From the NCBI GenBank assembly GCA_965603365.1, contig CBFDCR010000014.1:14183-78182 (forward strand): a DNA stretch of 64,000 nt, written 5' to 3'. This document shows, piece by piece, positions 44,038 to 60,600 of the stretch. The translations under genes were made by a program, and so were the position numbers. The notes under the pieces are model-generated. The model worked only from the letters and a program-made list of their open reading frames with translations. It was not told the DNA's origin and made no database searches. The stretch's first letter is position 1. The number at the start of each line of letters is the position of its first letter. Source of the DNA: an uncultured bacterium. Its GTDB lineage: Bacteria; Acidobacteriota; Aminicenantia; UBA2199.

Positions 44038-45678
44038 ATGCCTTCATCACAAACAGGATCAAGATATGCGTCATCGTTTCGTCGGCAGTGCACGGCCCGG
44101 GCATTGATACTGGGTATTATCGGCTCGGTGGTGATTACCACCAGTTCCATGTACGTGGCCCTGCGCATGGGCAGTCTGCCCTGGCCCACCATCTTTGTGG
44201 CGGTGATGTCCATGGCAGTATTGAAACTACTGAAACACACCAACCTCAACGAGATCAACGTGGCCCACACCGCCATGTCCTCGGGCAGCATGGTAGCCGG
44301 GGGACTGGCCTTTACCATCCCGGGAATCTGGATGGTGAATCCCAACGCCCAGGTGAGCCTGTTGTCGCTGCTGGCAGTCACGGTGTCGGGAACCCTCCTG
44401 GGTGTCCTATTTACCGCCGCCATCCGCAAGTACTTTATCGAAGAAGAGAGGCTGCCCTTCCCCATCGGCAAGGCCGCGGCAGAAACCGTGCTGGCCGGGG
44501 ATGAAGGAGGACGGAAGGCCCGGACACTGTTTTCCTCACTGGGGTTCACGGCGGTATTTGTGGCCCTGCGGGACGGTTTCAAGTTGATCCCCGGGGCCCT
44601 TTCCTGGCCCGGCCTGGCCACCAGGAATATATTTGTCGGCCTCTGGCTCTCCCCCATGGCCCTGGCCATCGGTTATATTATCGGGCCGCTGTTTACCGGC
44701 GTGTGGTTCCTGGGGGCCGTGATATCACACCTGTTTATCGTGCCGCTGGGTCTTGCCGCTGGCTGGTTCACTGATATAGCCGCGGCCAATGCCTTCAAAG
44801 ACAGCCTGGGCATCGGGCTGATGATCGGCACCGGCCTGGGTATACTATTCAAAGGCATGATCCGGCGGGCCCGGGAGATCTACGGGCCGATCATCAACAA
44901 AAAACGGGCTGAAGGCCGCAGCAGCCTGGTTCTCAAAATTTCGCCCCTCCTGCTGACAGCGGTGGCGTTTTTGCTGACAGTCTTCACCGGCATGGGGGTC
45001 TGGGTGAGTATCATCACCATCGCCGGTGTCTGGCTCACCACGGCCATGGCCGCCTCCATCACCGGCCAGACCGGTATTAATCCCATGGAGATCTTCGGCA
45101 TACTGGTATTACTGGCGGCCAGGGCCATCACCGGTATCGGCGGGCCGGAGGCTTTTTTTGTGGCCGGGGTGGTGGCGGTGGCCTGCGGCCTTACCGGGGA
45201 TGTGCTCAACGATTTCAAATCGGGGCATATTTTAAAAACCAGTCCCAGGGCCCAGATTGCGGCCGAGGCTGCCGGCGGCCTGGTGGGGGCTGTTGTGTCG
45301 GTCCTGGTTCTGCTGGCCATGCTCAAGGCCTTTGGCGCAGTCGGGCCGGGCAGCGAATTGATTGCACCCCAGGCCTATGCGGTATCGACAATGGCCACCG
45401 GCCTGCCCCACACCGGGGCCTTCTTCTTCGGCCTGGCCATCGGCCTGACACTTTACCTGTTCAATGTACCGGGCATGACATTGGGGCTGGGGGTATTTCT
45501 GCCCATGAAGATATCCGCCACCGTGTTTTTGGGCGGCCTGTTGGGCCTTATATTTAAAAAACGGCTGGCCCGCAGCCATCAAAACGATCACATTGCCATC
45601 ATCGCCGCCGGCCTGTTAGGGGGCGAAGGCATCGCCGGTGTCCTCATCGCCCTCCTCCACCTCCTCACCCCGGGTTAA
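44038..45678 (+). CDS. OPT-family oligopeptide transporter
   Basis: About 546 aa and about 15 TM helices. N-terminal CTARALILGIIGSVVITTSSMYVALRMG pattern. The ATG at 44038 is preferred over the GTG at 44017. Confidence 0.75.
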   Translation: MPSSQTGSRYASSFRRQCTARALILGIIGSVVITTSSMYVALRMGSLPWPTIFVAVMSMAVLKLLKHTNLNEINVAHTAMSSGSMVAGGLAFTIPGIWMVNPNAQVSLLSLLAVTVSGTLLGVLFTAAIRKYFIEEERLPFPIGKAAAETVLAGDEGGRKARTLFSSLGFTAVFVALRDGFKLIPGALSWPGLATRNIFVGLWLSPMALAIGYIIGPLFTGVWFLGAVISHLFIVPLGLAAGWFTDIAAANAFKDSLGIGLMIGTGLGILFKGMIRRAREIYGPIINKKRAEGRSSLVLKISPLLLTAVAFLLTVFTGMGVWVSIITIAGVWLTTAMAASITGQTGINPMEIFGILVLLAARAITGIGGPEAFFVAGVVAVACGLTGDVLNDFKSGHILKTSPRAQIAAEAAGGLVGAVVSVLVLLAMLKAFGAVGPGSELIAPQAYAVSTMATGLPHTGAFFFGLAIGLTLYLFNVPGMTLGLGVFLPMKISATVFLGGLLGLIFKKRLARSHQNDHIAIIAAGLLGGEGIAGVLIALLHLLTPG

Positions 45679-45701
45679 ATAGAGATAATGGTAATCCCGG
45701 C

Positions 45702-46331
45702 TTAACGGTTACAATATTTATTTAATTCGGTTACCAGTTGGTGGACCGTAGTGGATGGATTGTCTTTTCCCGGATTCGGGGGATTGTAGCGGTTTAACAG
45801 CCTTTCGGCATTTTTTATTGCTTCTTTCTGCTTGTTTAACAATTCCCGGTACATGGATGGATGATTCTTTTTATAGGGATGGTTTAAAAGCTGAGAAAGT
45901 TTCTCTATATATTGTTGCCTGGACATGGCCGTCTGGTAATAATGAAAGTGCAGCAGGTACCACAACTCGAAGGCCTCGTTGGAGTATGCGACCTTAATGC
46001 CCTGCCTAACGGCAAATGTGATGGCTTCACTAAAATTCTCCAGGGTGAAACCATTGCGATCGAATACGCACCACACTTGATCGTAAACCTCCTCATTGAT
46101 TCGGGCCCTGTCTCTGATCGCCAATGCCTTTCTTACCAGATTCACGGTATTATCCCCGGCTCCGATGACCTTGACTGTTGCCGAACTCAGCCGAAAAGAG
46201 TTAAAATAATTCGGTTCCGTTTTTTGCCCCTCGCAAACGATCAGAAAACTCTTTGGCGGCCTGCCTCTAAGCCTCGATTTTCTCTTAAGCGATCTGTTTT
46301 TTTTCTTCCAGAATAGGTTATCCGTTCCCAT
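45702..46331 (-). CDS. RloB-family (Toprim-like) protein
   Basis: FLIVCEGQKTEPNYFNSF motif, 209 aa. TAATG overlap with the upstream ATPase gene. Confidence 0.85.
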   Translation of the reverse strand: MGTDNLFWKKKNRSLKRKSRLRGRPPKSFLIVCEGQKTEPNYFNSFRLSSATVKVIGAGDNTVNLVRKALAIRDRARINEEVYDQVWCVFDRNGFTLENFSEAITFAVRQGIKVAYSNEAFELWYLLHFHYYQTAMSRQQYIEKLSQLLNHPYKKNHPSMYRELLNKQKEAIKNAERLLNRYNPPNPGKDNPSTTVHQLVTELNKYCNR

Positions 46332-47584
46332 TAAACCTTATCATTATCAGTGCTGTCCTCAAACAGAGATTCAATATTACCGATAAACGGGATGGCTCCG
46401 TATTTTCCCATGATGTAATCTTTATTGAATGAGGCATCCTTGCGGACTTTGTATTCCTCCAGGGAGTAAAGTTCCGACGCCCCATATTCATCTTTCTGGA
46501 TAAACCAGATCTGGTCTCTCCTGAAAAATTGATTGGACAGGATGTTGGTATCATGGCTGACGAATATGAGCTGTGATTTGGGCCTCCAGGCGTTATCTTT
46601 TTTTGGTTTGTAATGATGAAACATCTCGATGAGTGCCCTCGTTAAAAGAGGATGAAATTTCGATGTGAGTTCGTCTATTACCAACACATCGTCATTTTTT
46701 AAAGCTTGATAAATGGGCTGTGAGAGTTCGAAAAGAGCCTGAGTCCCGGCCGATTCGTCTCTAAGAAGGTCGAACTTTTCCTCCGATAACGGGTTGTTAT
46801 GCTGATCGTATATTTGATGTATAACCCTATAACAGGATGACTGGTCATATACCCTGCCATCGTTTCGATCCTTCCAAATATCTTCCTTCTTGATGTTTTT
46901 TAATCCCATATCGGCAACCTTTAAAAGTTTTAGTACAAATTCCTTGAATTCATGATGCTCAAGTTCATAATCACACCAACAATCCGATTCAATATCAATA
47001 ACAATAACAAGATGATCGAACCATTCCAATATCTTTTTGGCGGTCTGACCATTAAATTGATCGACCACAGAAAGGAAAAGGGCGTTTGCCCTTGTCTTGC
47101 TTGCTAATCCTTTTCCTTCTTTAAAACCGGGACCTATCTTAATTTGATCTTTTTCTCTGGTAAAAAGGGTGGCCTCCCTGATGGTGGGAACATAATAGAG
47201 CCATTCATGGTAAACCCGTTCCCTGTCTACCTGGAATCCATATCTATAGCGTATCCCGTCAATTAAAAAAGTAACCTCAAAGGTCGAAGGCACGGTCTTT
47301 GTTTCAGTACTTAATCGAAATTCATCAACCTTTTTTATTTTGTTTGCAGAACTTTCCTTAGAAGAAGTTAATACAAGCTCCTTCATTAATTTAAGGGCTT
47401 TAACCAGGTTCGATTTTCCACTGGCATTGGCCCCATAAAGGGCAGCACTTTTTAGCAGTCTCAGCTTATCGTTCACCCGGATAGTGTTGGTATCACGATG
47501 CTCTCTGTCTGCTGAAGCCACCATGCTCAGGGTAACAATATCCTTGAAGGAGAGGAAATTTCCTACTTTAAATTCTATCAACAT
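46331..47584 (-). CDS. AAA_21/ABC-type ATPase (RloA / OLD-ATPase-like)
   Basis: MLIEFKVGNFLSFKD start, Walker A GANASGKSNL, and C-terminal LVIDELTSKFHP and QLIFVSHDT. The ATG at 47584 follows GAGAGG. AT-rich. Confidence 0.85.
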   Translation of the reverse strand: MLIEFKVGNFLSFKDIVTLSMVASADREHRDTNTIRVNDKLRLLKSAALYGANASGKSNLVKALKLMKELVLTSSKESSANKIKKVDEFRLSTETKTVPSTFEVTFLIDGIRYRYGFQVDRERVYHEWLYYVPTIREATLFTREKDQIKIGPGFKEGKGLASKTRANALFLSVVDQFNGQTAKKILEWFDHLVIVIDIESDCWCDYELEHHEFKEFVLKLLKVADMGLKNIKKEDIWKDRNDGRVYDQSSCYRVIHQIYDQHNNPLSEEKFDLLRDESAGTQALFELSQPIYQALKNDDVLVIDELTSKFHPLLTRALIEMFHHYKPKKDNAWRPKSQLIFVSHDTNILSNQFFRRDQIWFIQKDEYGASELYSLEEYKVRKDASFNKDYIMGKYGAIPFIGNIESLFEDSTDNDKV

Positions 47585-47717
47585 CTTTAGCCTCTCTTTG
47601 TTCTTATAATCTATTATCAAATTAAAGTCAAGTTTTTTGAGAAAATTCCTCAAAAAAGTGTCTTTTGCAACCAAATCCTGCTGGCGAATAGGGCAAAGGA
47701 GTGCGGTTTGTTCTCAT

Positions 47718-48557
47718 TTAAATCGGCATGGGGGGGTGATTTTCGGTATGGCGGTCGATTTTCAGGGAGGGGAGATCTATGGTGACATAGGTGAAATCTC
47801 GCAGTTGGCCCGGCTGGATGGAGAGGGTGTCGCCAATTTTGTTAAACCAACTGCCGGTCATCAGCGGCGACTCGTGGATGTGGCCGTGAAGCGACAGCAG
47901 GGGTTGATGGGTCTCCAGGAACCGATACACGGCTATAGAACCCACCTCCCGGCCGTCGGAGCAGCAATCCAGGCCCACAAAGGCGGGGGGCATGTGCATC
48001 ACATATATACTGCGCCGAAAATCCGTCGGTTTTACCAACTGCCCCAACTCATCCTGGAGTGTGGCTAAGGTCAGGGCATAACTGAACCAATCGTCGATAT
48101 AGGCCAGGCCGTCTTCCGTAGACAATACTCCACGGCCATGCTGCTGGGGAAAGATAAAATCCCGGGTATCCATGCGGCAGCGGTCCTTCAACTGGAAGGG
48201 ATAATCCGCCACCCAGTTCATGCCGATAAATTCGTATCCCCCAATTTCCACCCTCTTCTGGGCCAGGTCTTTAACAAAGGCGTATTTCCCGCAGGTCGCC
48301 TCGTACAACGAATCGAATATCCGCAAGTCGTCGTTGCCCAGGCAGCCCAGGTAATAAATTCCCGCACTCTCTAATTTCTTAAAATAGGGGCCCAGGTATT
48401 CGACGATAAACTGGCTCTGCTTTTTCAACGCGCCGCCAAAGGGCAGGGCATCGCCGCCGTTGATTACGATGTCGGCCGCCATCTCCCGGGCCAGTTCAAA
48501 AAGCCGCTCGTATTTCCACCAACTGCCGTGCAGATCAGTCACATAAATGATTGTCAT
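47718..48557 (-). CDS. calcineurin-like metallophosphoesterase
   Basis: YVTDLHG, GGDA, GNDD, HMPP and GHIHE metal-ligand motifs. 279 aa. Confidence 0.8.
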   Translation of the reverse strand: MTIIYVTDLHGSWWKYERLFELAREMAADIVINGGDALPFGGALKKQSQFIVEYLGPYFKKLESAGIYYLGCLGNDDLRIFDSLYEATCGKYAFVKDLAQKRVEIGGYEFIGMNWVADYPFQLKDRCRMDTRDFIFPQQHGRGVLSTEDGLAYIDDWFSYALTLATLQDELGQLVKPTDFRRSIYVMHMPPAFVGLDCCSDGREVGSIAVYRFLETHQPLLSLHGHIHESPLMTGSWFNKIGDTLSIQPGQLRDFTYVTIDLPSLKIDRHTENHPPMPI

Positions 48558-48688
48558 CGTCCCAAAAAGAGTACCATTCTACACCATCGTACTCCCCAAC
48601 ACAAGAGCAAAACCAACCAGAACGAAACCGGAGAAGCGGGAACAGATCCCGGAATGCTGGATTTGTGGAATTATTTTTCTACAACTTA

Positions 48689-48717
48689 TTGAAATATTAG
48701 AATATTTCCTCTAAAAT
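48689..48717 (+). promoter_or_regulatory. sigma70-type promoter of the three-gene operon, with a palindrome in the spacer
   Basis: TTGAAA (48689-48694), 17-nt spacer, TAAAAT (48712-48717). The spacer contains AAATATT-AG-AATATTT. Confidence 0.55.
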
Positions 48718-48784
48718 TAGACCTATGGAAAAAACGATCTTCCCGTCAGTTGTGCATAAAAATGGCTGGTAAATTAAAAGTAAA

Positions 48785-49342
48785 ATGAGGGTAAATAATT
48801 TTAAATCTCTTAAAGGGAACAAAGACCTTTTAAAGGCCAAAAAAGTGGGCATTTTAGCATCCAGGCACATTCTCCCCGGTCTTACCCAATTTGTGATGGA
48901 GTCTATGCAAAGGCTAGCCAGATTGGAAACCGTATTCATTGGCGGCTGGCATGCACCGATTGAAAAAGAGATTCATAAATTTTTGGTTAAGCGTCAAGTA
49001 TCACACATTCATGTTTGTGCCCAAACCGTTGATAAAACATACTGTGCTTTAAACCCAACTAAAACCCTGTTTATATCGCACTGCCATCCCGGTATTACCC
49101 GCATATCGAGGGAAAATGCTCTTAAAGGAAACAGTGTCTTATGTGAATTATCGGACGTTATGTTAATCCCCTGGTTAGATCCTTATGGCAAAACGCATAA
49201 AATTGTTCTTGACTTCTGTAACAGGATGCCGGTCTTTGTTTTTGATACAGAATTCAATTCTGGTCTAATTGAGGCAGGGGCCCTCTCTTATCATTGCAAC
49301 AAAGTAATATCTACTCTGGAGAACGATCATGCGAACAATTGA
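48785..49342 (+). CDS. DprA/Smf-like (SLOG superfamily) Rossmann protein
   Basis: 185 aa. VGILASR...TVFIGGWHAPIEKEIH...SRENALKGNSVLCELSDVMLIPW...GKT...PVFVFD follows the DprA Rossmann pattern without its flanking DNA-binding domains. 14-nt overlap with the next gene. Confidence 0.6.
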   Translation: MRVNNFKSLKGNKDLLKAKKVGILASRHILPGLTQFVMESMQRLARLETVFIGGWHAPIEKEIHKFLVKRQVSHIHVCAQTVDKTYCALNPTKTLFISHCHPGITRISRENALKGNSVLCELSDVMLIPWLDPYGKTHKIVLDFCNRMPVFVFDTEFNSGLIEAGALSYHCNKVISTLENDHANN

Positions 49343-52300
49343 AGAGATCATAAAAACTCAATCCCATCTGGTGGTGCGCCAGATTCGAGAGGCGACGAGC
49401 TGGACCGAATCCGAAGAGGATTTACGAATAGCAACAGAAAGAATACTGGGAGAATTCAAAAACCAGGCAAAATTACAAGATTTTAGAGGACATCACGAGG
49501 TTACGATTGGCAAGGGAAGAGCAGATTCTGTTTACAATTACGTGGTTATAGAATATAAAAAACCCAAACGGCTAAGTGAATCAAATACTGCCCCGGGAAA
49601 CCGGGAAGTTATCGAGCAGTTAAAGACACGCCTGTATGACCTGGAAAAAGAAGAGAGGAGAAAAATCACGAAATTATTCGGCATCGGTTTTGATGGCCAC
49701 TGGTTTATCTTTGTTCGGTTCCGAAATAACAGTTGGGAAATCAGCAATCCTCTTCCTGTCACCCCCCAGACTACAGAGAGATTCTTACGGGCATTGTTAT
49801 CGCTTGCCGCAACCGGTAAAGCATTTCAACCGGCCTATCTTTCCGGGGACTTTGGTGCCGATTCGCTGTTATCGGGGGAAGGTATAAAGACATTTTATAA
49901 AGCCATCACCAACTCCGAAAATCCCAAAGCACAGGTTCTTTTTGATGAGTGGAAAATTCTTTTCGGTGAAGTGGGGGGCTATGACGTAAAAGCCTTTGAG
50001 GAAAAAATACAGGTTCTGGCCGATTTCTATCATATCAAGGGGAAACCCGATCCTTCCGCACTCCTCTTCTCCGTACATACCTATTATGCCCTATTCATGA
50101 AGTTGCTGGCTGCCGAAATCATGAACTACTTTAATCCCATGTTCCCATCTATTCTCAGTCGTCTTCATCAGATTGCCACCGGAGAAAAGCTTTTGCGCGA
50201 ACTGCGAGAACTGGAAAAGGGTGGAATTTACCGACAGATGGGGATTACGAACTTCTTAGAGGGCGATATGTTTTTATGGTATCTGGAGGCCTGGGATACC
50301 AAAGATAAAAAAGGAGAAAAGATTGATCTGGAGCGAGTCATCCGTGACATGATCGGTAGATTGGATGAATATGACCCGGTAACCCTCTCTATCGAACCCG
50401 GCGAATCGAGAGACCTGCTTAAAGAACTGTACCAGAACCTCTTCCCCCAAAAAATACGGCACGATCTCGGCGAATATTATACTCCAGATTGGCTTGCCCA
50501 ATGGGTGATTGAAAAAGTCGGGATCAAAGGAAATCCGGATGAACGCATACTCGACCCGGCATGCGGCTCCGGCACATTCCTGGTGCTGGCGATTCAGAAG
50601 GTACGTGAATTTGCCGACGAAAAAATGATACCGGAAAAGGAGCTTTTAAAAAAGATTAATGAAAATGTGATCGGCTTTGACTTGAATCCTCTGGCAGTTA
50701 TCGCCGCCCGGCTCAATTATCTCATCGCCATCAGAGATTTAATTAAATACGGAAATCAGATCGAAATCCCCGTCTACCTGTGCGATTCGGTCATGACACC
50801 ATCCGAATATGGAGAACTTTTTACAAATAACAAAGGCGTTGCTGCCCCGGGCGGAAGACGAGGGGCAGTGAAGGAGCTTAAAACCAGCGCTGAAACCTTT
50901 TACATCCCTACAGAGATCGCTGCCTCCCGCGGACTGGTGGCCAGATATGCCGAAGAGTTGGAATACTGTGTACAGCATGAATTTAGTCCCGAAGAGTTCA
51001 TCCAGAGGCTAAAGGAAGAAGACCTGCCGGTTCTTCATGAAGATTTGCACAAAGATCTGTTCAATATGTTAACCAGTCTAAATAAACGGGACAAAAACGG
51101 TATCTGGGCGCGCATTATAAAGAATGCCTTTGCCCCCCTCTTCATCCAGCCGGTGGACTACGTGATCGGTAATCCACCATGGGTAAACTGGGAGAGCCTG
51201 CCGGGAGAGTACCGGCAGGACAGTAAAGAGTTATGGTTTAAATACAACCTGTTTCCCCACAAAGGCATGGATGCCATCCTGGGTAAAGGGAAGAAAGATA
51301 TTTCTATGATTATGACGTATGTTGCCATGGACAAATATTTGAAGGCTCACGGCCGTCTGGGATTCGTAATTACCCAATCGGTGTTTAAGACCTCCGGGGC
51401 TGGCCAGGGTTTTCGACGATTTCGGATCAATAACGAAATCCCCATCGCACCGGTGTACTGCGACGACATGGTAAAAATCAAACCCTTTGAAGCGGCCAAT
51501 CGCACCGCAGTCATCGTGCTGGAACGGGACAAAGAGTTAGAGTACCCGGTTCCCTACACGGTCTGGAAAAAGAAGGAGCGACAGAAAATAGACAGCCACA
51601 CCCCGCTATCGGCTGTGCTGGAGAGGACGCTGAGAGATCCATTTGTAGGAAAACCGGTGGATGGCAGGGACAAAACTTCCGCCTGGATAACAGGCAAAAC
51701 GAAGGCACTCGAGGCCGTAAACAAAGTACTCGGGAAATCCGCCTACAAAGCCCATGAAGGTGTAAATACCGGTGGTGCCAATGGAGTCTATTGGGTCGAA
51801 ATCCTGCAGGAGTTGGCGGAAGGCAAGGTACTGGTGCGAAACATCACCGAAGGGGCCAAACGAAAAGTCAGGCAGGCAGAAGCGGTGATTGAAAAGGATT
51901 TACTGTATCCCCTGGTGCGGGGGCGCGACGTCAGACGCTGGCAGGCCAAACCTTCGGCCCACATCATCATGGTACAGGACCCCCAAAAACGGCGGGGCAT
52001 CGACGAATCCATAATGAAACAAAAATACCCCCTCACTTATACTTATCTTAAACAATTTGAGAGAGTATTAAAGTCACGGGCAGCGTACAGGCGCTATTTC
52101 AAAGAGAGCGATCCGTTTTATTCAATGTTCGATGTGGGCAGCTATACATTGGCCCCCTGGAAAGTAAGCTGGCGATACATTGCCAGTGAATTCACCTGTA
52201 GTGTGATATCTGCCGATCAAGATTATAGCAACAATCTTATTATCCCGGATCACCGTTTAATTGTGGTCTCCTTTCAAACCCCAGAAGAAGCCCACTACCT

Positions 52301-52601
52301 ATGCGCAGTATTAAATTCAGCACCGTCACGCTATCTGGTCAATAGTTATGTGATAAGCACCCAAATATCTACCCATGTTCTCCATAATATCTATGTCCCC
52401 CGATTTGATCTATCTGTTCCCGGCCACCAGGAACTGGCAAGTCTCTCAAAACAGGCCCACCAGGTTGCGAAGACAGGAGATGGCACCCGCCTGAGAAAAG
52501 TGGAAGCGGAAATCGATAAGCTTACAGCCCCATTATGGAATCTCACCGCGAAAGAGTTACGAGACATCCAGGCATCGTTGAAAGCAATAGTGAGTCAGTA
52601 A
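49329..52601 (+). CDS. single-chain restriction-modification enzyme: PD-(D/E)xK nuclease + N6-adenine MTase + TaqI-like specificity domain (type IIG-like)
   Basis: HsdR-N/Mrr-like GRADSVYNYVVIEYKKP (49518-49562) and GFDGHWFIF. Motif I DPACGSGTFL (50553). Motif IV NPPW (51171-51182). C-terminal TRD-like ~350 aa. Confidence 0.8.
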   Translation: MRTIEEIIKTQSHLVVRQIREATSWTESEEDLRIATERILGEFKNQAKLQDFRGHHEVTIGKGRADSVYNYVVIEYKKPKRLSESNTAPGNREVIEQLKTRLYDLEKEERRKITKLFGIGFDGHWFIFVRFRNNSWEISNPLPVTPQTTERFLRALLSLAATGKAFQPAYLSGDFGADSLLSGEGIKTFYKAITNSENPKAQVLFDEWKILFGEVGGYDVKAFEEKIQVLADFYHIKGKPDPSALLFSVHTYYALFMKLLAAEIMNYFNPMFPSILSRLHQIATGEKLLRELRELEKGGIYRQMGITNFLEGDMFLWYLEAWDTKDKKGEKIDLERVIRDMIGRLDEYDPVTLSIEPGESRDLLKELYQNLFPQKIRHDLGEYYTPDWLAQWVIEKVGIKGNPDERILDPACGSGTFLVLAIQKVREFADEKMIPEKELLKKINENVIGFDLNPLAVIAARLNYLIAIRDLIKYGNQIEIPVYLCDSVMTPSEYGELFTNNKGVAAPGGRRGAVKELKTSAETFYIPTEIAASRGLVARYAEELEYCVQHEFSPEEFIQRLKEEDLPVLHEDLHKDLFNMLTSLNKRDKNGIWARIIKNAFAPLFIQPVDYVIGNPPWVNWESLPGEYRQDSKELWFKYNLFPHKGMDAILGKGKKDISMIMTYVAMDKYLKAHGRLGFVITQSVFKTSGAGQGFRRFRINNEIPIAPVYCDDMVKIKPFEAANRTAVIVLERDKELEYPVPYTVWKKKERQKIDSHTPLSAVLERTLRDPFVGKPVDGRDKTSAWITGKTKALEAVNKVLGKSAYKAHEGVNTGGANGVYWVEILQELAEGKVLVRNITEGAKRKVRQAEAVIEKDLLYPLVRGRDVRRWQAKPSAHIIMVQDPQKRRGIDESIMKQKYPLTYTYLKQFERVLKSRAAYRRYFKESDPFYSMFDVGSYTLAPWKVSWRYIASEFTCSVISADQDYSNNLIIPDHRLIVVSFQTPEEAHYLCAVLNSAPSRYLVNSYVISTQISTHVLHNIYVPRFDLSVPGHQELASLSKQAHQVAKTGDGTRLRKVEAEIDKLTAPLWNLTAKELRDIQASLKAIVSQ

Positions 52602-52602
52602 A

Positions 52603-55278
52603 ATGGATGAAACGGACTTTCGGGAATCGGATATCGTTGTTTCACAGGACGATCTGCTGCGGCCCTACGGCAAGGCGCGCCTCATTAAAATCAAAAGAGG
52701 GTTGGCCGAAGCAGAGTACGTACCCCATATTTTCAGCCGGCCGCCCTACTTTACCCATATCAAATTTCTCCGACTGGAAGAGACCGAGAAGTTCCTTTCA
52801 CCGGTTGACAGGTTACAAAATCGCCGATTCGAAGAAACCTGGAAATTTGACATGCGGCAAATGGCCGCCAGGTTTCTCACGGCCAACAAGGGCGGTCAGC
52901 TTTCCTGTATCCGCGCCGAATTGTTACCCCATCAAATCTTCACCGCCTATGAAGTCATCAAAAGTAAACGGCGCCGCTTTCTGCTGGCCCACGCAGGGAA
53001 AACGGGGAAAATCATAGAAGCGGGTCTGATCTGGGAGGCCCTTTTCCAGCGGAGAGTGGCAGACCGTACCCTGATCATTTGCCCCGCCGGATTAATGCTG
53101 CAGTGGCAGGAGGAGATAGAGGAAAAATTCGGTACCTTTTTCGAAATATTTAACCGCAACTTCCTTACCATCAATCCCCGCATGTGGGACTTAAAAACCA
53201 CCGTCATCGTCTCTATCGAAGGTTTGAAGCAGGCAGAGGCAAAACTGCTAAAAGATCGCCAGTGGGATTTAATTATAATCGACGAGGCCCACAAACTGAG
53301 TGCCGGAGAGCATAGATCCACATTGGCGGAGCAGCTAAAAGACCACACCGATGCCCTGATTTTACTTACCGCCACCCCTCATCAGGGAGAAGACAACCAC
53401 GCCCGTTTTATCAATTTGATGAAACTGCTGGATGAAGAGATCGACTTTAATCCCCTGTTCCATGGAGATCTCCCTCTTTTTAAAACGAAGACCGACCCGG
53501 GCAAGGTTCCCTTTTATCAGTATATCCTGGGTACCCCCAAAATGGCCGTGACCGACGCCTCGGGCCGCAAACTCCTCAAAGGGCGCAAAACCCATAATTA
53601 TACATTTGAGATGTTCCCTGACGAAAATGAGTTTTATAAGGCAGTAACAAATTATATTAAAAAAGGCTATTCCTGTCTCGAACGGCTCAGGGATAAACAG
53701 GATCGCCAGGCCCTCTGCCTTGTCCTCTCCCTATTCCAGAAAATCGCGGCCAGCAGCACCGCCGCCATCAAAAATTCACTCCGCAACCGCAAGCTGGCCC
53801 TGGAATACAAGAACGGTATCGTAAGAGAAAAAAGTAAATTTGAAGATGAACGGTTCAGCGGAGAATACGAAGAGTCTCAAGTTCCATTTGAATTCGAAAA
53901 ACAATTTATCAAAGACGAAGTCAAAGAGATCGATTCCCTCCTTGACATGGAAGTCCGGCAGGATACTAAATCCGTTGAACTTCTAAACCTCATCCACTCA
54001 ATATTTGACCCGATAGCAGATGAAAAAGAGGGCAAAATTGTCATTTTTACCGAATATCTCGCCACCCAGAAGCACCTGGTGGACATACTGGAACATGAAT
54101 ATGGCCAGGATTGTACAATTACCATAAACGGCAACCTGGATGTGGACCAGCGGCGTCTCAATCAAAGAGAATTTCGGGATAATCCCAGGATTCATTTTCT
54201 CGTATCTACCGAATCCGGGGGAGAAGGCGGTAACCTTCAGTGTTCCCACATCCTGTTTAACTACGACATGCCCTGGAATCCGAGGCGGATCGAGCAGCGG
54301 GTGAGAAGAGTCTACCGATATGGCCAGGCGCAGGTGGTACAAATCCACAATTTTCGAACAAAAGGGACAAGCGAAGATAAAATTTATGGGTATATAGAGG
54401 AAAAAATCGAGCGGGCAGCCAGCGCACTCACCAGGGTGACCGGTGAAGATGTGGAAGGGATCATGGCCGCCATGTACGACGAAATGGAAAATGAGATCGA
54501 TTACAATGAAATATACAAAAGGTCTCTGGTTGAAGGCGATATCGAAGAAGCAAAAGAGGAGATCGACCGGGGCGTTGCCCGGGCAAAGCGGGCGTATGAA
54601 TTAGCCGCAGAGAAATTGTTTAAGGATGTCTCCGCTTATTCACCCGATTATTATGAAAAATACGTGCAGTCAGACATAACATTACAGGATCTGGCAGTAT
54701 TCACCAGGAGATATCTGGAATCCAAACGAAAAAAGTCACAAAAAACAGACGGTATTTTTTCTTTTATCACTCCCGAAGAATTCTGTGATAGAGAAGTTAA
54801 AGACAGGTATGAAAATGTCACCTTCGACCGCAAAAAAGCCGGCGATCAGCCGGAATTAGAATTACTCGCCCTGGGTCATCCATTCATAGACAAAATGGTC
54901 AACTCATGCGGAACCGTCGATTTTGGTGGGTATGCAACCACTCGAATCATAAAAAATAAAAAATTTTCCGGCACAAAAGGAATTCAATTTAATTATGTTG
55001 TCTCTCATCGTATCGAACGAGGTGAAAAAGAAGAATATCTTTTTGATATGTATACCATTTTTATCGATGAATCTTACCAGATCAACGACGATATAGCCCA
55101 TATCTGCCGGAGATACTATTCGGAAAATGACCATCCAATTGTGGACAACGGAATCGATGTCGATATAAAAAAAGCCGAAAAAATTGCCGAGAATTATTTG
55201 CGTAAAAATATCGACATTATCCGGGGCTGGCAAGAGGATGTAGAATTATTGAATGCAGCCCTTGTCCAGGTACAATAA
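52603..55278 (+). CDS. SNF2-family (RapA/HepA-like) helicase/translocase
   Basis: LIIIDEAHKL, ILLTATPHQG, FLVSTESGGEGGNLQ and NYDMPWNPRRIEQRVRRVYRYGQ. Motif I is atypical (AHAGKTGKIIEAG). It starts 1 nt after the R-M gene stop. Confidence 0.85.
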   Translation: MDETDFRESDIVVSQDDLLRPYGKARLIKIKRGLAEAEYVPHIFSRPPYFTHIKFLRLEETEKFLSPVDRLQNRRFEETWKFDMRQMAARFLTANKGGQLSCIRAELLPHQIFTAYEVIKSKRRRFLLAHAGKTGKIIEAGLIWEALFQRRVADRTLIICPAGLMLQWQEEIEEKFGTFFEIFNRNFLTINPRMWDLKTTVIVSIEGLKQAEAKLLKDRQWDLIIIDEAHKLSAGEHRSTLAEQLKDHTDALILLTATPHQGEDNHARFINLMKLLDEEIDFNPLFHGDLPLFKTKTDPGKVPFYQYILGTPKMAVTDASGRKLLKGRKTHNYTFEMFPDENEFYKAVTNYIKKGYSCLERLRDKQDRQALCLVLSLFQKIAASSTAAIKNSLRNRKLALEYKNGIVREKSKFEDERFSGEYEESQVPFEFEKQFIKDEVKEIDSLLDMEVRQDTKSVELLNLIHSIFDPIADEKEGKIVIFTEYLATQKHLVDILEHEYGQDCTITINGNLDVDQRRLNQREFRDNPRIHFLVSTESGGEGGNLQCSHILFNYDMPWNPRRIEQRVRRVYRYGQAQVVQIHNFRTKGTSEDKIYGYIEEKIERAASALTRVTGEDVEGIMAAMYDEMENEIDYNEIYKRSLVEGDIEEAKEEIDRGVARAKRAYELAAEKLFKDVSAYSPDYYEKYVQSDITLQDLAVFTRRYLESKRKKSQKTDGIFSFITPEEFCDREVKDRYENVTFDRKKAGDQPELELLALGHPFIDKMVNSCGTVDFGGYATTRIIKNKKFSGTKGIQFNYVVSHRIERGEKEEYLFDMYTIFIDESYQINDDIAHICRRYYSENDHPIVDNGIDVDIKKAEKIAENYLRKNIDIIRGWQEDVELLNAALVQVQ

Positions 55279-55289
55279 GTTTCAAAGTC

Positions 55290-55562
55290 GGTCAAATCGG
55301 GTCTAGTGGCGGGCCAGTTGGATGGCTTTGTCGAGGAATTCGTCGCGGCCCTCTTTCACCCCTTTGATGGTTCTGTTGAGGGGGATGTGGGGGATGATGC
55401 CCACGCCGTGAGGTGAGGCTCCAGGGGTTCTAACTTCCAGGAGCGGTTGGCGTATGTGACCTGTTCATAATCGGGATAGGCGATTTTCCACCAACTGCCG
55501 TGCAGATCAGTCACATAAATGATTGTCATCATGCCAAAAAAAACACCATTCTACACTATCTA
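55290..55562 (-). repeat. chimeric duplicate: S41-peptidase 3' fragment fused to the metallophosphoesterase 5' fragment plus its upstream DNA
   Basis: 55290-55410 matches 58304-58425 with about 3 differences. 55411-55488 matches 58634-58707 with about 3 differences; the intervening ~208 nt are missing. 55487-55562 matches 48512-48590, with the first 46 nt identical. Confidence 0.9.
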
Positions 55563-55576
55563 AGATGATCTAAGGA

Positions 55577-55951
55577 TTATCTCTTTTCAGTATACTTAAC
55601 CCCTTCAATGCCTTCAAAATCAGCATCTTGTGTCCACAGGACGGCACCGAGGAGCAAAGAGGTTGCCAATATTATACTATCTGCCATGGGCAATTGATGA
55701 TCCACCGAGATTCGGGCCGCATGAATAGAAATTTCGGTATCAAGATCTATGACCTTGCCCTGCCGCATCAATGCTACCGCTTCAAGGGCTTGATTCTCGT
55801 CTCTCTGCTGAAGTACTCTCTTGAAAACTTCATATAAAGTAATGGAAGGGACCAATAACTCGGCAACATTTTCAATAGCAGGGATGAAGAATTCACAATT
55901 TGGACCATCGGAAAAATATTCCAGCCAACCACAAGAATCAACAATATTCAT
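55577..55951 (-). CDS. PIN-domain VapC toxin
   Basis: MNIVDSCGWLEYF..., ADSIILATS and WTQDADF motifs. ATGA overlap with the antitoxin gene. Confidence 0.85.
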   Translation of the reverse strand: MNIVDSCGWLEYFSDGPNCEFFIPAIENVAELLVPSITLYEVFKRVLQQRDENQALEAVALMRQGKVIDLDTEISIHAARISVDHQLPMADSIILATSLLLGAVLWTQDADFEGIEGVKYTEKR

Positions 55952-56154
55952 ATTCGATCTTTCTCCCGGGTTACGGTGGTATCAATTCCCTTCAAGAATC
56001 CCCTCGCTTCCTTGATGGGTTTGACCGGGATCATTTCGATCCGATTCCCATATAAGAAAACCTGTACCTTTTGGCCGGGGAGAATACCTAAAGATTTCCG
56101 AATTGATCGGGGGATAACCACCTGAAATTTTGGCGATACTGTAATAGTCTCCAT
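55948..56154 (-). CDS. AbrB/MazE/SpoVT-family antitoxin
   Basis: TVSPKFQVVIPRSIRKSLGILPGQKV swapped-hairpin motif. 68 aa. Confidence 0.85.
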   Translation of the reverse strand: METITVSPKFQVVIPRSIRKSLGILPGQKVQVFLYGNRIEMIPVKPIKEARGFLKGIDTTVTREKDRI

Positions 56155-56295
56155 ACGTTCTCCTTATCGATCAAGCTTTCGTATTACAAATAAATATATT
56201 ATCACATAATTCCCCCCATTTCAAACACAATTCCTGCCCGCCGACTTCCTATCCTTCCTACTTTCTTGTTGACAGGGAAATTACTTTTATTTATA

Positions 56296-56556
56296 ATGAA
56301 TTTGATGGCAATACAAATTCACCCCCATGCTCTGGATCGAATGAAAGAACGCGGCACCAATGCAGAAGAGATAAAAAAAACCATTGAATTTGGAGAAAGT
56401 TTCCCGGCAAAATTCGGCAGAACCGGCTTTAGACGCAATTTCCCATTTAACAGCTATTGGAATCAAAAGAAATACAACACCAAACAGGTTGAAGTTATTG
56501 CCATCCGGGAAGACAATAATTGGATCGCAGTAACGGTATTAGTGAAATACTTTTAG
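56296..56556 (+). CDS. DUF4258-family protein (putative toxin)
   Basis: IHPHALDRMKERGTNAEEIKKTIEFGE...VEVIAIREDNNWIAVTVL pattern. The ATG at 56296 is preferred; the track start at 56266 is TTG. Confidence 0.65.
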   Translation: MNLMAIQIHPHALDRMKERGTNAEEIKKTIEFGESFPAKFGRTGFRRNFPFNSYWNQKKYNTKQVEVIAIREDNNWIAVTVLVKYF

Positions 56557-56566
56557 GAGAAAAAAA

Positions 56567-56800
56567 ATGAAAATAAGTTACGATCCCAAATACAACATTG
56601 CTTATATCAAAGTGAGAGATAAAGCCGCTGACGTCGAAACCCTTCGAATCAGCGATGAAATCAACATTGATCTTACACCTGATGGGAGGGTTTACGGCAT
56701 TGAATTGATGAATGCCAACGAACAACTGGATTTTGAGAAAACCAGGGAATTGATATTCATCAATGAATCCACCGGCCAAAAAGCAGAGCTGAGGATATAA
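56567..56800 (+). CDS. DUF2283-family protein (putative antitoxin)
   Basis: MKISYDPKYNIAYIKV...IDLTPDGRVYGIELMNANE pattern. Confidence 0.75.
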   Translation: MKISYDPKYNIAYIKVRDKAADVETLRISDEINIDLTPDGRVYGIELMNANEQLDFEKTRELIFINESTGQKAELRI

Positions 56801-57071
56801 TTTGACGAGTACTTAATCTTTGCCTGTCACCTATCTCCTACCTACTAATAGCTAAAACAAAGACAGCCAGATTTCCCCTTGTATGGGACGCAGTTCTGCG
56901 TTCCCCACAACAACCTTTCAGAGGAAAACAAGGGGGACGAAAAAAATGAAAAATTGTCAAAAGGAAAAAAGAATTTGCGCTTCTGAAATTCAAATTTGTT
57001 TGCTCCAGACTGGAAAAGACTGGATATTATTGAATTGTTAAATGTTCGCCTTCATGCACCTTAAGGCAATT

Positions 57072-58136
57072 CTACTTTTTATCTTTGCCTGTATCACTAT
57101 ATAATTTTCGGATATCTCCATATTCTAAAATATAATCATAAATATAATAACCTCCAACTTTTGAATTAAAATAATGCCCGGGACTCCTACCTGGCCATCT
57201 CCCAATAAAAGCGAACTTCTCGATTTTCTCGGGCCAGAGAAAACTATTATAACTTCCGATATATTTGTCATCAATATAAAACTTAACGAAATCATAATTT
57301 TTTGACCACATTACTGTAAATAAATGCCAGCCTATATCGATCTTTTTATCAGTTGAAATTGCATCCCTTCTTATCCCATCACTACTACCAAACCTCCAAT
57401 AGATTTTGCCAGTTTCTTTGTTATAGAATTTGCCTATATGACAGGCATTGATATATATTTTTTGAAATTGCGGATGACCATCTTCATCCTCATATTCAAT
57501 TTTTTTCATCCGCCCCTTATTCCCAGAGTGACTTAAAATGTATTGATTATCTCTATTCTTAGTGTTATAGTGGTCATCGTTAATATAAGCCCAAATAGAA
57601 AATGTTCCCTCATTTCGCCCTAAAAAATCACACGGTATCCGCAATTCATTTCCTTTATATGCAGTTATATCATGCGTCTCTTCATCGCTAATAAAAGGCT
57701 TTTTAAAATCATCCAAAAATTTTCGTAAATAATTCTCAAAATTCAAAATCCCATCAGAATTAGAAAACTCGTATTTATAATATCTATGTGCTTTCAAATC
57801 TGTGGGTACATCATCACCATTTTGAGTAATTAACAGAACCTTCTTATTTAAAGCATGAGCTAATCCTAATTCATAGAATACATTAGGATTTCGATTAGTC
57901 AAATCTGCAACGATAATCCCGGCCTGTTTAATTAGATTTGCAACACCTTGCATTATTGTTGTAGAAAACATATCATCCGCTTTTAGAATTTCATATCCAT
58001 ACTCTTCAAATATTGGTTTTAAAACTTTTTCAAAAATCAATATGTTTTTAAAAGGTAGAATAACAAAGGCCAATTTAGGCTTCACTGTTATTTCTTCATA
58101 TTCGAGCATGAAAAATTGAGTTTCTTGATAGTCCAT
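57072..58136 (-). CDS. NDT/TIR-like Rossmann domain fused to a LamG (ConA-like lectin) domain
   Basis: N-terminus: AFVILPF...ILKADDMF...IKQAGIIVADLTNRNPNVFYELGLAHALNKKVLLI. C-terminus: GTFSIWAYIN...WHLFTVMWSKNYDFVKFYIDDKYIGS...VGGYYIYDYILEYGDIRKLY. Markedly AT-rich. GGAGG before the ATG. Confidence 0.65.
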   Translation of the reverse strand: MDYQETQFFMLEYEEITVKPKLAFVILPFKNILIFEKVLKPIFEEYGYEILKADDMFSTTIMQGVANLIKQAGIIVADLTNRNPNVFYELGLAHALNKKVLLITQNGDDVPTDLKAHRYYKYEFSNSDGILNFENYLRKFLDDFKKPFISDEETHDITAYKGNELRIPCDFLGRNEGTFSIWAYINDDHYNTKNRDNQYILSHSGNKGRMKKIEYEDEDGHPQFQKIYINACHIGKFYNKETGKIYWRFGSSDGIRRDAISTDKKIDIGWHLFTVMWSKNYDFVKFYIDDKYIGSYNSFLWPEKIEKFAFIGRWPGRSPGHYFNSKVGGYYIYDYILEYGDIRKLYSDTGKDKK

Positions 58137-58305
58137 TTTATGCCTCCATCAACGTATATTCTTTCCGAAATCATATTATATCAAAGTCTTTCACTTTCTT
58201 CTACTTGAAGAACCATGACTTCAGAAATAAACCTTAAATCAATTCTTTTTTTTCATCCTTCTGGCAATTTTTTTGTCCCTCTTTGGGTATGAAAATGTCA
58301 CATGG

Positions 58306-60600
58306 TCAAATTTGGGTCTGGTGGCGGGCCAGTTGGATGGCTTTGTCGAGGAATTCGTCGCGGCCCTCTTTCACCCCTTTGATGGTTCTGTTGAGGGGGA
58401 TGTGGGGGATGATGCCCACGCCGTGGTGCTGAGAGCCGTCGTGTTTGACCACCCGCATACCGGTAAAGGTGACGCGGTAGCCGCCGGGCAGGCGGATGGC
58501 ATTCACATTGCCGTTGGTACCGGCAGTGGGCTGGCCGATGATGGTGGCCAGTTTGTAGTGTTCGATAAAGCCCATGAAGGATTCGGCATAACTGATGGCC
58601 CGGCCATCCACGATAAAAATCACTTTTGCCGTCAGGTGAGGCTCCAGGGGTGCTAACTTCCAGGAGCGGTTGGTGTATGTGACCTGTTCATAATCGGGAT
58701 AGACGATCTGGGGAATCCGCATCCAGGAGGTGGAGGTGTCCTTCTCCTTGAGCAAATGGCAGATCAAACGGTGATTGCCCATGGGGTAGCCCCTTAAATC
58801 GCAGATGATGCTTTTGGCCTTCTCCAGTTGGGGCATCAGTTTTTCGATCTCCGGCCAGGTGATTTGCCCCAGGTTCAGGTACAGGATGCCTTCCCCTATT
58901 TTTTTATACCTGTCCTCCCGAAAACTGATCTGCCGTTGATACTTCCTGCTGCAAACGATCTCCCGCAGAAGGATTTGATCTCCCCTGAGGATCTTCAAAC
59001 TCTTTTTGGAATTTTCTGTCCCCATCAGCAAATTGCCCAGTGTCCGGTACTGCTTCCAGCCGGGGGTGGCGGCGGAGATGTATTGGCCCTCGTTGGCCAG
59101 CGCATCGCCGGCTTTTAGGCCATCGATTTCCAGGATGATATCACCGGGCCTGATGTCAAGTTTCTGATCCAGCACCCGGGTCACCACCAGTTGCTCTTCC
59201 AGCCACTCCCAGTCGAGGGGCGCATAAAAAAGGCGGGGCGCGCCCTGTAGAGAGACCCGGACATGGCCGTCTTTCAAGGCGGCGGTGAATTTTTGCAGGG
59301 TTTTAAGGAAATCAAATTGATCCTTATCCCGGTAGGCCCATTCAAGGGCCCTGGTTAACTGGGCCGGCCAGTCGGCCTGGACTGCGTCGAAATAGGGAAA
59401 GAAGTGCTGAAAGATATTCCAGCTTATGACAATATCGGCCAGCCGGGTATACAGATCATCACCGGAAAACTCTTTTGAGACTTCCTGCTCAACCGCGGCA
59501 CGCAGCCGGGCCAACGCCTCTCCAGGAGAGGGCGGATAGGTATGCTCCCGGCTGCCGTAGAGGGCCAGGGGCACGATGCACGATAGGCCGCCGCCCAGTT
59601 CCTTGCTCACCGTCTCCCCCACCCGGGGAACCTGTTCAAAAATGGGGTCCCGGTACACCAGGGTTTTGTGTTCGATCAACAGACTCTTATTTCCCTTGGC
59701 CGCCGTCTGGTCTGTGACCTGAAAAGAGTAGACGGCATCGGCAAACATCCACTCCTTGGGCGACCCGCCGGGGCCAGCGACTTCAAAATCGGCATTCGGT
59801 ATTTCCACCGGCTGCCAGGCATCGGCCTCCTTGAGGTAAATTTGAAAATCATCGGCCCAGACCTTGCCCAAACCGACCAGGAAGCAGCCAAAGAAAATAT
59901 CTTCGGCATCATCGGCCACCGTACCGATAATTTCATAGTATTGCCAATCGGATGATCGAATGGGGCGGTCATCCATGTTGTCAAAAAATCCCAACTGTCG
60001 CCCGGGGCGGTCCACCCGCAGCCACAACTGGCTCTGGCCGGCCTTTTTTTGTACCTCCGCTTTGACGGCGGCACGCAATTTGATCTCCTTTCCCCGAAAG
60101 GGGGCGGAGTCAACTTTGCTGCTGATAGCCCCAAAATCATTGGCGGGAACGATCACGTTTTCCCGGTTAACCCGGATACTCTTGTAGATACTCCGGGGCC
60201 TTCCCAGGGCCACGCCCAGGTGCTGCCAGGCCACCTCTTTCATACCTTCCATCTCCGGCGGGGTGATGCTGGCTTTAGAAAACGCCACCGACTCTTCGGA
60301 ATCGTGGATCACCAGCGCAGGGGCAATGGGCATGAACAACCCCTGCAATGCCTGTTTAAGTTCGGCTCTATTTCGGGCCGACTCGACCGTTTTGATCCCG
60401 TAGACGGCAAACTTCTGCCAATCCATCCGGGCCGCCTCATCAGTGGGATGAAAGAAGCGCACATAGCCGTACAACCGGGCAAAGGTTTCGATGTTGGCCG
60501 CCGCCTCTTCATGGGAAGTTTGCCCCGGTAAATAACCGGCGGTACAAATCCCCATCAGAACCAGGATGAATAATACTACTCCGCTAACATTTCGCCTCAT
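58306..60600 (-). CDS. S41-family (tail-specific/tricorn-core-like) peptidase
   Basis: 764 aa. Signal peptide, PDZ-like segment (IRPGDIILEIDGLKAGDA), and S41 core (ICDLRGYPMGN...FIVDGRAISYAESF). Confidence 0.8.
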   Translation of the reverse strand: MRRNVSGVVLFILVLMGICTAGYLPGQTSHEEAAANIETFARLYGYVRFFHPTDEAARMDWQKFAVYGIKTVESARNRAELKQALQGLFMPIAPALVIHDSEESVAFSKASITPPEMEGMKEVAWQHLGVALGRPRSIYKSIRVNRENVIVPANDFGAISSKVDSAPFRGKEIKLRAAVKAEVQKKAGQSQLWLRVDRPGRQLGFFDNMDDRPIRSSDWQYYEIIGTVADDAEDIFFGCFLVGLGKVWADDFQIYLKEADAWQPVEIPNADFEVAGPGGSPKEWMFADAVYSFQVTDQTAAKGNKSLLIEHKTLVYRDPIFEQVPRVGETVSKELGGGLSCIVPLALYGSREHTYPPSPGEALARLRAAVEQEVSKEFSGDDLYTRLADIVISWNIFQHFFPYFDAVQADWPAQLTRALEWAYRDKDQFDFLKTLQKFTAALKDGHVRVSLQGAPRLFYAPLDWEWLEEQLVVTRVLDQKLDIRPGDIILEIDGLKAGDALANEGQYISAATPGWKQYRTLGNLLMGTENSKKSLKILRGDQILLREIVCSRKYQRQISFREDRYKKIGEGILYLNLGQITWPEIEKLMPQLEKAKSIICDLRGYPMGNHRLICHLLKEKDTSTSWMRIPQIVYPDYEQVTYTNRSWKLAPLEPHLTAKVIFIVDGRAISYAESFMGFIEHYKLATIIGQPTAGTNGNVNAIRLPGGYRVTFTGMRVVKHDGSQHHGVGIIPHIPLNRTIKGVKEGRDEFLDKAIQLARHQTQI

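Follow-up and report, generated by a model that had tools for sequence, protein, structure and literature searches.

Probable additive exchange between haplotypes, recorded by a fused two-gene scar inside a defence island that carries no recombinase gene

The window analysed here is a 64-kb stretch of a metagenome-assembled contig of 84.8 kb, which is present in NCBI, ENA and Logan. It contains an island of defence genes bounded by an OPT-family transporter gene and an S41 peptidase gene. Genes were identified from Pfam and PADLOC matches, and are arranged as follows.

44017-45678, + strand: OPT-family transporter gene, one of the two true core flanks
45702-47674, - strand: AbiL system, comprising AbiLii/RloB (45702-46331; PADLOC, 3e-31) and AbiLi/AAA_21 (46331-47674; 2e-98)
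47718-48557, - strand: metallophosphoesterase gene, called side a (Pfam), judged below to be island cargo
48589-55289, + strand: cargo X, 6.7 kb, holding the next three genes
48785-49342, + strand: DprA/SLOG-like gene, a weak match (Pfam)
49329-52601, + strand: Type IIG restriction-methylase of 1090 aa, a fused REase-MTase (PADLOC REase_MTase_IIG, E=0; Pfam N6_Mtase and Eco57I)
52603-55278, + strand: SNF2 helicase (Pfam; BrxH/HmaA/DrmD-like matches in PADLOC)
55561-58303, mixed strands: cargo Y, 2.7 kb (Pfam and PADLOC), holding the next five genes
55577-55951, - strand: VapC
55948-56154, - strand: VapB/MazE-fold protein
56266-56556, + strand: DUF4258 protein
56567-56800, + strand: DUF2283 protein
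57072-58136, - strand: NDT/TIR-like plus LamG protein (weak matches)
58306-60600, - strand: S41 peptidase gene, called side b, the other true core flank (Pfam)

The peptidase and phosphoesterase genes have a GC content of 55-58%, X of 39-54% and Y of 30-47%. Neither Pfam nor PADLOC identified an integrase, transposase or recombinase domain within the island, and there is no gap in it large enough to hold such a gene. A tRNA scan found none within the 64-kb window, and no terminal inverted repeats were found at X. An integrase-driven island is characterised by a recombinase gene together with an att-type target, for which a tRNA often serves; this island does not show that combination.

X and Y are separated by a scar of 271 nt (55290-55560), in which a 3' fragment of the peptidase gene (b') is fused to a 5' fragment of the phosphoesterase gene (a'), giving the overall layout a-X-b'|a'-Y-b. 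The parts of the scar and the functional copies to which they correspond are listed here.

55290-55410, - strand: distal piece of b', the last 39 codons, stop codon and following 2 nt of the S41 peptidase gene
55405-55484, - strand: proximal piece of b', peptidase codons ~632-656
55485-55560, - strand: a', 31 nt of upstream sequence and the first 15 codons (45 coding nt, ATG included) of the metallophosphoesterase gene
55356-55532, - strand: chimeric ORF of 58 aa, phosphoesterase residues 1-15 in frame with peptidase residues ~632-656, then a frameshifted tail
48513-48588, - strand: a, functional copy of the duplicated 76-nt target, covering the phosphoesterase start and leader
58304-58707, - strand: b, the functional peptidase 3' end copied by b'

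Self-blastn and a repeat finder, applied to the 64-kb window, matched 55290-55410 to 58304-58425 (97.5% identity, E 1e-54), 55405-55484 to 58628-58707 (95% identity, E 9e-32) and 55485-55560 to 48513-48588 (92% identity, E 7e-27), and found no further match of the scar with E <0.05 in the window. The two peptidase pieces overlap by the 6 nt GCCGTG at 55405-55410. This overlap is the microhomology of an internal deletion of 208 nt in b', which is bounded by GCCGT(G), and the scar consequently lacks 58426-58627 along with one of the two microhomology copies. At 55484|55485, b' and a' meet bluntly, with 0 nt common to the two sides. Homology to the peptidase stops 2 nt beyond the stop codon in both copies, and homology to the phosphoesterase extends upstream of the ATG for 31 nt; X and Y both abut the repeats at these identical boundaries. 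The chimeric ORF shows no sign of function and is probably a dead by-product.

We note that much of this had been described in a sequence-only reading of the same DNA. The layout that it proposed, with X of 6.7 kb and Y of 2.7 kb, agrees in its coordinates; the gene identities that it named are in accord with the Pfam and PADLOC matches; and its description of the island as free of recombinases holds for both searches. The three self-blastn matches reproduce its scar, including the start at 55290 and the copy of the S41 peptidase 3' end (58304-58707) minus ~208 nt at GCCGT. It had placed the junction with the phosphoesterase start at ~55487 and counted 14 codons: the direct joining stands, and the position is corrected to 55484|55485 and the count to 15 codons including the ATG.

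The same structure was found outside the window. Both the b'|a' joint and the 208-nt deletion recur in a sister strain, L081 (ENA ERZ27291558), which shares 98.4-98.8% identity with the window. One substitution in the L081 scar is private to it, and Y is also shorter in L081 than in the window. L168 and L170 (JGI 3300038338) are 100% identical to L081. L081 and L168 may share source data, and the independent support is counted as two strains and one fragmentary contig. The latter, L171, comes from a third sample (Logan, ERR1811634), is 6.8 kb long and carries X at 99.1% identity. One end of it lies about 30 nt inside b' and the other 29 nt inside a; these are the positions at which a 31-mer graph must branch if the repeats sit in two contexts. 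At least some of the related assemblies derive from sediment metagenomes. Because the joint is common to an independently assembled sister strain it is a true recombination product, and the 271-nt segment is genuine and inherited.

Related genomes hold other contents at the same site. Peptidase orthologues with 97%, 89% and 63% identity occupy the same position; synteny is lost in more distant orthologues (55-57% identity), and the nearest named homologues of the peptidase are from Aminicenantes, at ~55% identity, a weak pointer to the lineage. In L082 and L083 (peptidase 89% identical) the order is peptidase-DUF2283-VapB-phosphoesterase-AbiL-BrnTA-OPT, without X. The phosphoesterase and peptidase genes are here 660 nt apart, with Y-type cargo only; its DUF2283 segment matches Y of the window at 98.4% identity and its VapB segment at 96.7%. 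The boundary between VapB and the phosphoesterase follows the Y-a' boundary of the window for 16 nt beyond the a/a' homology. It follows that there is a single-cargo Y allele whose phosphoesterase is intact, and a' is a remnant of that arrangement.

In L084 (peptidase 63% identical) the peptidase gene faces the OPT gene with ~60 nt between them and the phosphoesterase gene is absent, which makes this an empty site. The OPT gene of the window is 95-96% identical to the PF03169 OPT genes of L082 and L169 and 78.5% identical to that of L084. The interval between peptidase and OPT measures 12.6 kb in the window and ~4.2 kb in L082; in L081 it has a variant content, with BrnTA present and Y shortened, and in L084 it is empty. 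Among the four haplotypes sampled, the same two flanks enclose differing cargo and in one case none, as is expected of a core defence hotspot. The AbiL system is present in L081, L082 and L083, and Y occurs in reduced form in L081 and L082.

Scans of genome and metagenome collections found phosphoesterase homologues outside the lineage at no more than 64-66% identity, scattered among Desulfobacterales, Nitrospirota, Methanosarcinales, Asgard archaea and others. These comparisons show that the phosphoesterase is island cargo and not a core gene, because it is absent from the empty site of L084 and its homologues outside the lineage are patchy. The hotspot is the peptidase|OPT interval, and the phosphoesterase and the AbiL system are older cargo inside it. 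The earlier description of the phosphoesterase and peptidase as two core genes fails at L084, where the peptidase directly faces OPT; the idea of an intergenic hotspot for exchangeable cargo survives in that the cargo is variable and no recombinase is present, with the real flanks being peptidase and OPT. The two genes had been expected to be neighbours in related genomes, and in L082/L083 they are. Two single-cargo alleles had also been predicted, of which peptidase-Y-phosphoesterase occurs in L082/L083 and a-X-b was not found.

The search for an X-only allele (peptidase-X-phosphoesterase) was made via SNF2 homologues, and the next-best of these are 60-67% identical and lie in other contexts; the closest X outside the lineage is 67% identical. 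In those other contexts the DprA-like, Type IIG and SNF2 genes are contiguous again. One example is L166 (GCA_964456985.1, 5796-13412), where the trio is 64% identical and is flanked by HNH and Mrr-domain genes. The trio may represent a discrete type of defence module, which PADLOC names only gene by gene. When plasmids were searched with the Type IIG protein, no match exceeded 32% identity and no vector emerged.

Two other parts of the region attracted our attention. The NDT/TIR-like plus LamG (LamG/ConA-like) gene at 57072-58136 (- strand) is absent from L081 and L082; its 354-aa product is the sole member of its 90% cluster, its GC content is ~30-33%, and it is a candidate single-gene defence effector. 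Beyond the OPT gene, 41500-43900 is a further stretch of low GC (37-42%), the L169 counterpart of which includes a homologue of a HicB-like antitoxin, and it may be a second variable region.

A second footprint is present at the OPT end of the island. In L082 and in L081/L169, the final 48 nt of the OPT gene occur twice, at 98% identity, on either side of a 650-nt BrnT/BrnA cassette.

45632-45679, + strand, in the window: OPT 3' end, a single copy of 48 nt, without the cassette
15843-15890 and 16541-16588, in L082: OPT-end repeats bracketing BrnT/BrnA

Since the sister strain and the outgroup both carry the cassette, the single-copy state of the window is most simply explained as a precise loss of BrnT/BrnA, which would have occurred by recombination between the repeats. 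This shows that insertion with duplication of the end of a flanking gene recurs in the island, and that the repeats serve as deletion substrates. No further duplications were found at the boundaries of NDT-LamG, DUF4258 and VapC or at the deletions in L081, all of which are plain deletions with 0-3 nt of microhomology.

A separate deletion is seen beside lspA, where a 100-aa ORF (60776-61078, + strand) is a remnant of isoleucyl-tRNA synthetase consisting of ~60-80 N-terminal residues and the last 14. L082 and L083 have a full 927-aa ileS at that site. The window and L081 are without ~2.5 kb of the gene, and a second ileS must therefore exist elsewhere in the genome.

The differences between the duplicated copies were examined by aligning all copies with the three functional peptidase alleles. 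In the window, b' differs from the resident peptidase at 7 positions, all of which are among the 9 sites in ~200 nt that are polymorphic between functional alleles. At every one of the 7, b' carries an allele seen in a functional gene, and it has no private change. The probability that random decay would produce 7 allelic differences out of 7 is roughly 1e-13. A codon-position analysis had suggested that the b' mismatches were random decay; this was overturned when the alleles of other strains were aligned.

The two pieces of b' differ in their affinities. The proximal piece of 80 nt has 4 mismatches, 3 of L082 type and 1, at the end of the piece, of L081 type. The distal piece of 121 nt has 3 variants of L081 type, which include an earlier TAG stop, and is 100% identical to the functional L081 peptidase 3' end, TAG stop included. 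All four combinations of two linked blocks of sites in the b segment exist, and recombination within this segment is therefore frequent. In the comparison of a' with a, 6 of the 31 leader bases differ and none of the 45 coding bases; the six differences set a' apart from the functional leaders of both the window and L082, and L082 itself differs at 3 synonymous sites within the same 45 coding nt. There is thus an apparent breakpoint at the phosphoesterase ATG.

Because the copy differences are allelic, a merger of two haplotypes, from which the duplicated pieces would separately stem, fits better than duplication followed by loss. This argument rests on three functional alleles, and the pattern could also result if recombination afterwards overwrote the 3' end of the resident peptidase gene. 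The functional peptidase of L081 ends 4 codons early (760 aa, compared to 764 aa) by way of the TAG that is found in the scar (L081 12176-12296 against window 58304-58425). The resident 3' ends of the sister strains are different alleles, which implies that recombination took place again once the scar existed.

The identity profile of the window against L082 is a mosaic: 87-95% over most of the peptidase gene, 95-96% over its last 500 nt, 97-98% in the Y genes, 94-95% in the phosphoesterase and 97-100% in AbiL. Both 45632-48588 and 55952-56809 of the window are closer to the L082 lineage than the peptidase is, which suggests that the island has been exchanged more recently than its flanks.

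We consider it probable that the scar arose by additive allelic exchange between haplotypes, in which one homologous exchange and one illegitimate join added X together with its peptidase tag. This reading rests on features that are observed: how the scar is built, the fact that the joint is inherited, the existence of a Y-only allele, copy differences that are allelic, and an island lacking mobility genes. For the donor, the order of events and the enzymology, we infer the following. The resident haplotype would have been peptidase-Y-phosphoesterase, and the incoming DNA would have come from the same locus in another haplotype, with the arrangement peptidase-X-phosphoesterase. Such an X-only donor is predicted to have a junction in which the peptidase gene, including 58426-58627, continues past its stop codon into GACTTTGAAACTTAT. 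An illegitimate blunt join would have connected phosphoesterase codon 15 to peptidase codon ~632, and the homologous exchange would have taken place in the flanking repeat, most simply in the identical block of 45 nt at the phosphoesterase start. The product would be X plus peptidase tag, bracketed by the 76-nt target duplication and stacked beside Y. In the window, direct repeats do flank a b'+X insert of about 6.9 kb (48589-55484).

Any model with two alleles requires both an illegitimate join, seen as the blunt b'|a' joint, and a homologous exchange, and two routes would give this identical product. A circle, b'-X-leader-a45, could integrate by a crossover in the 45-nt block (Campbell-type), or one end of a linear DNA could pair with homologous sequence of the phosphoesterase or peptidase gene while its other end is joined illegitimately (homology-facilitated illegitimate recombination, HFIR). 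Because no dedicated recombinase is involved, host RecA-type recombination and end joining would presumably be responsible. Between a and a', divergence is 19% across the leader and drops sharply to 0% over the 45 coding nt, a change that purifying selection or gene conversion could mimic. This switch at the ATG would fit a crossover within the 45-nt block and mildly favours the geometry of a circle or long target duplication.

Other observations bear on this origin. X is portable, in that the same three-gene module is found elsewhere, and X and Y have a low GC content compared to the flanking peptidase and phosphoesterase genes; both count in favour. Against it, a homology of 45-76 nt is short for RecA-dependent exchange, the joint is without microhomology, and no X-only donor was found.

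The rival that survives best is a tandem duplication of the interval from the peptidase end to the phosphoesterase start, made by illegitimate exchange between sister chromosomes, after which the cargo copies would have diverged into X and Y by deletion or allelic replacement. In its favour, the resulting b'|a' joint would be no different, and the island has many small illegitimate deletions whose microhomology is 0-3 nt. However, X and Y have no sequence in common, and to arrive at identical boundaries would demand several base-precise deletions. Moreover the copy differences are allelic and not random, kilobase tandem repeats are unstable, and the Y-only allele stands as an independent haplotype. 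We therefore regard a duplication as improbable. The sequence-only reading had allowed both Campbell-type integration and duplication with differential loss as sources of the junction: the b'|a' joint does fit either, but the second is disfavoured by the allelic differences, the boundaries and the dissimilarity of the two cargos.

X might instead be a self-mobile element that inserted into the phosphoesterase start by site-specific recombination or transposition, with the peptidase fragment as an incidental passenger. Its conserved three-gene module does recur in unrelated contexts, and it includes a DprA-like protein; canonical DprA loads RecA. However, at E 8e-5 the DprA match falls below the Pfam cut-off; this weak match spans a truncated domain, of a type that a defence-system model, PsyrA, also hits weakly. 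Searches for an integrase, a transposase, terminal inverted repeats and a tRNA target found none of them, and the 76-nt duplication far exceeds the target duplications made by transposons. Furthermore, the peptidase tag ends exactly at the boundary used by Y, which points to an allelic locus and not to random passenger DNA as its source. In our view a self-mobile X is very improbable.

A chimeric assembly, created by a metagenomic mis-join between co-occurring strains, has a negligible chance of being the explanation: the contig is metagenome-assembled and its repeats could mislead assemblers, but mis-joins arise inside shared sequence and could not make the novel codon-632|codon-15 junction plus a 208-nt deletion, and the same junctions are present in another strain and other assemblies with ~1.5% divergence around them and a private substitution in that scar.

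If additive allelic exchange did produce the stack, the remaining direct repeats could mediate a later precise loss of either cargo, and recombination at a/a' or at the distal b/b' block could resolve it into either single-cargo allele. A more far-reaching idea, which we consider unlikely, is that the island acts as a recombinase-free cassette store working in both directions, by means of homology-tagged circles excised at a/a' or b/b'. Excised circles could then re-integrate at the same hotspot in any strain with shared flanks, defence cassettes would circulate in the lineage without machinery encoded by an element, and the loss of BrnT/BrnA would be one observed half of the cycle.

Defence islands at integrase-free hotspots are common. 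The steps by which they gain cargo can seldom be seen, since an allele that is cleanly replaced leaves nothing behind; here a physical record of the gain survives. On the reading that we favour, the fused flank remnants would mean that the corresponding locus in another strain supplied the cassette, through a homologous event and an illegitimate one, and that the resident toxin-antitoxin cargo was kept, with X placed next to it. An inward-displaced gene-end fragment together with a long target duplication would then be a footprint of additive exchange that can be sought in metagenomes, and the mechanism suggests how the long target duplications seen around R-M genes, so far without explanation, could have arisen. 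The type of event, a gain of genes without a recombinase, has been described already, and this is no new kind of system. This locus contributes a tag from the far flank within the insert, which identifies the donor as an allelic locus and exposes the illegitimate joint.

Insertion of R-M genes with long target duplication was reportedly recognised by Nobusato and Kobayashi in 2000. The published criteria are that restriction and modification functions are in the insert, that the insert is <20 kb and has no mobility genes, that there is a unique duplication of >30 bp, and that there is a single-copy comparator (PMC2853133). The X insert contains R and M functions (PADLOC E=0; Pfam N6_Mtase, Eco57I), and is about 6.9 kb long without mobile-element genes. 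Its target is present as two 76-nt copies, 92% identical, with no third copy in the 64-kb window, and L082/L083, in which the phosphoesterase is intact after Y-type cargo, provide the uninterrupted single-copy target. By these sequence features X qualifies on all the published criteria as an R-M insertion with long target duplication (PMC2853133). In the published cases the repeats often overlap the 3' ends of genes, and the mechanism was left open (PMC2853133). The likeness to the cases of Furuta, Abe and Kobayashi (2010) extends to the R-M insert, the direct duplication and the single-copy relative, and our OPT case likewise overlaps a 3' end. It differs from them in that the X insert also carries a gene fragment from the far side of the same locus, and in that the lineage is uncultivated and comes from sediment metagenomes.

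HFIR joints that have been studied experimentally usually show a few bases of microhomology. The joint at 55484|55485 has 0 nt, in contrast to this, and it is the separate 208-nt deletion that uses 6 nt; the product here is moreover the same as that of single-crossover integration of a circle. As HFIR is described in PMC5361080 and PMC3240628, which refer to de Vries and Wackernagel (2002), Prudhomme et al. (2002) and Meier and Wackernagel (2003), it shares with our locus one homologous and one illegitimate end, and the placing of foreign DNA beside resident DNA without a dedicated recombinase.

Additive displacement, attributed to HFIR, has been proposed for the orphan immunity arrays of the Vibrio cholerae T6SS and for Rhs/CDI C-terminal displacement (Kirchberger et al., 2017; PMC5361080). 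There too, modules from an allelic locus are added and not substituted, old cargo and 3'-end remnants are pushed inward, and the results are mosaics of several donors. The T6SS/Rhs arrays are made of effector-immunity pairs anchored in one conserved upstream gene, whereas the cargo here is anti-phage and toxin-antitoxin, and both flanks have left remnants, which are fused together. Finally, core defence hotspots without mobility genes resemble this locus in having conserved flanks, variable defence content and no integrase, and in the account of Johnson et al. (2023; PMC10250203) their turnover is attributed to recombination in the flanks. That account, as far as it concerns us here, is a catalogue of content, whereas at this locus the physical joint of one addition is preserved.
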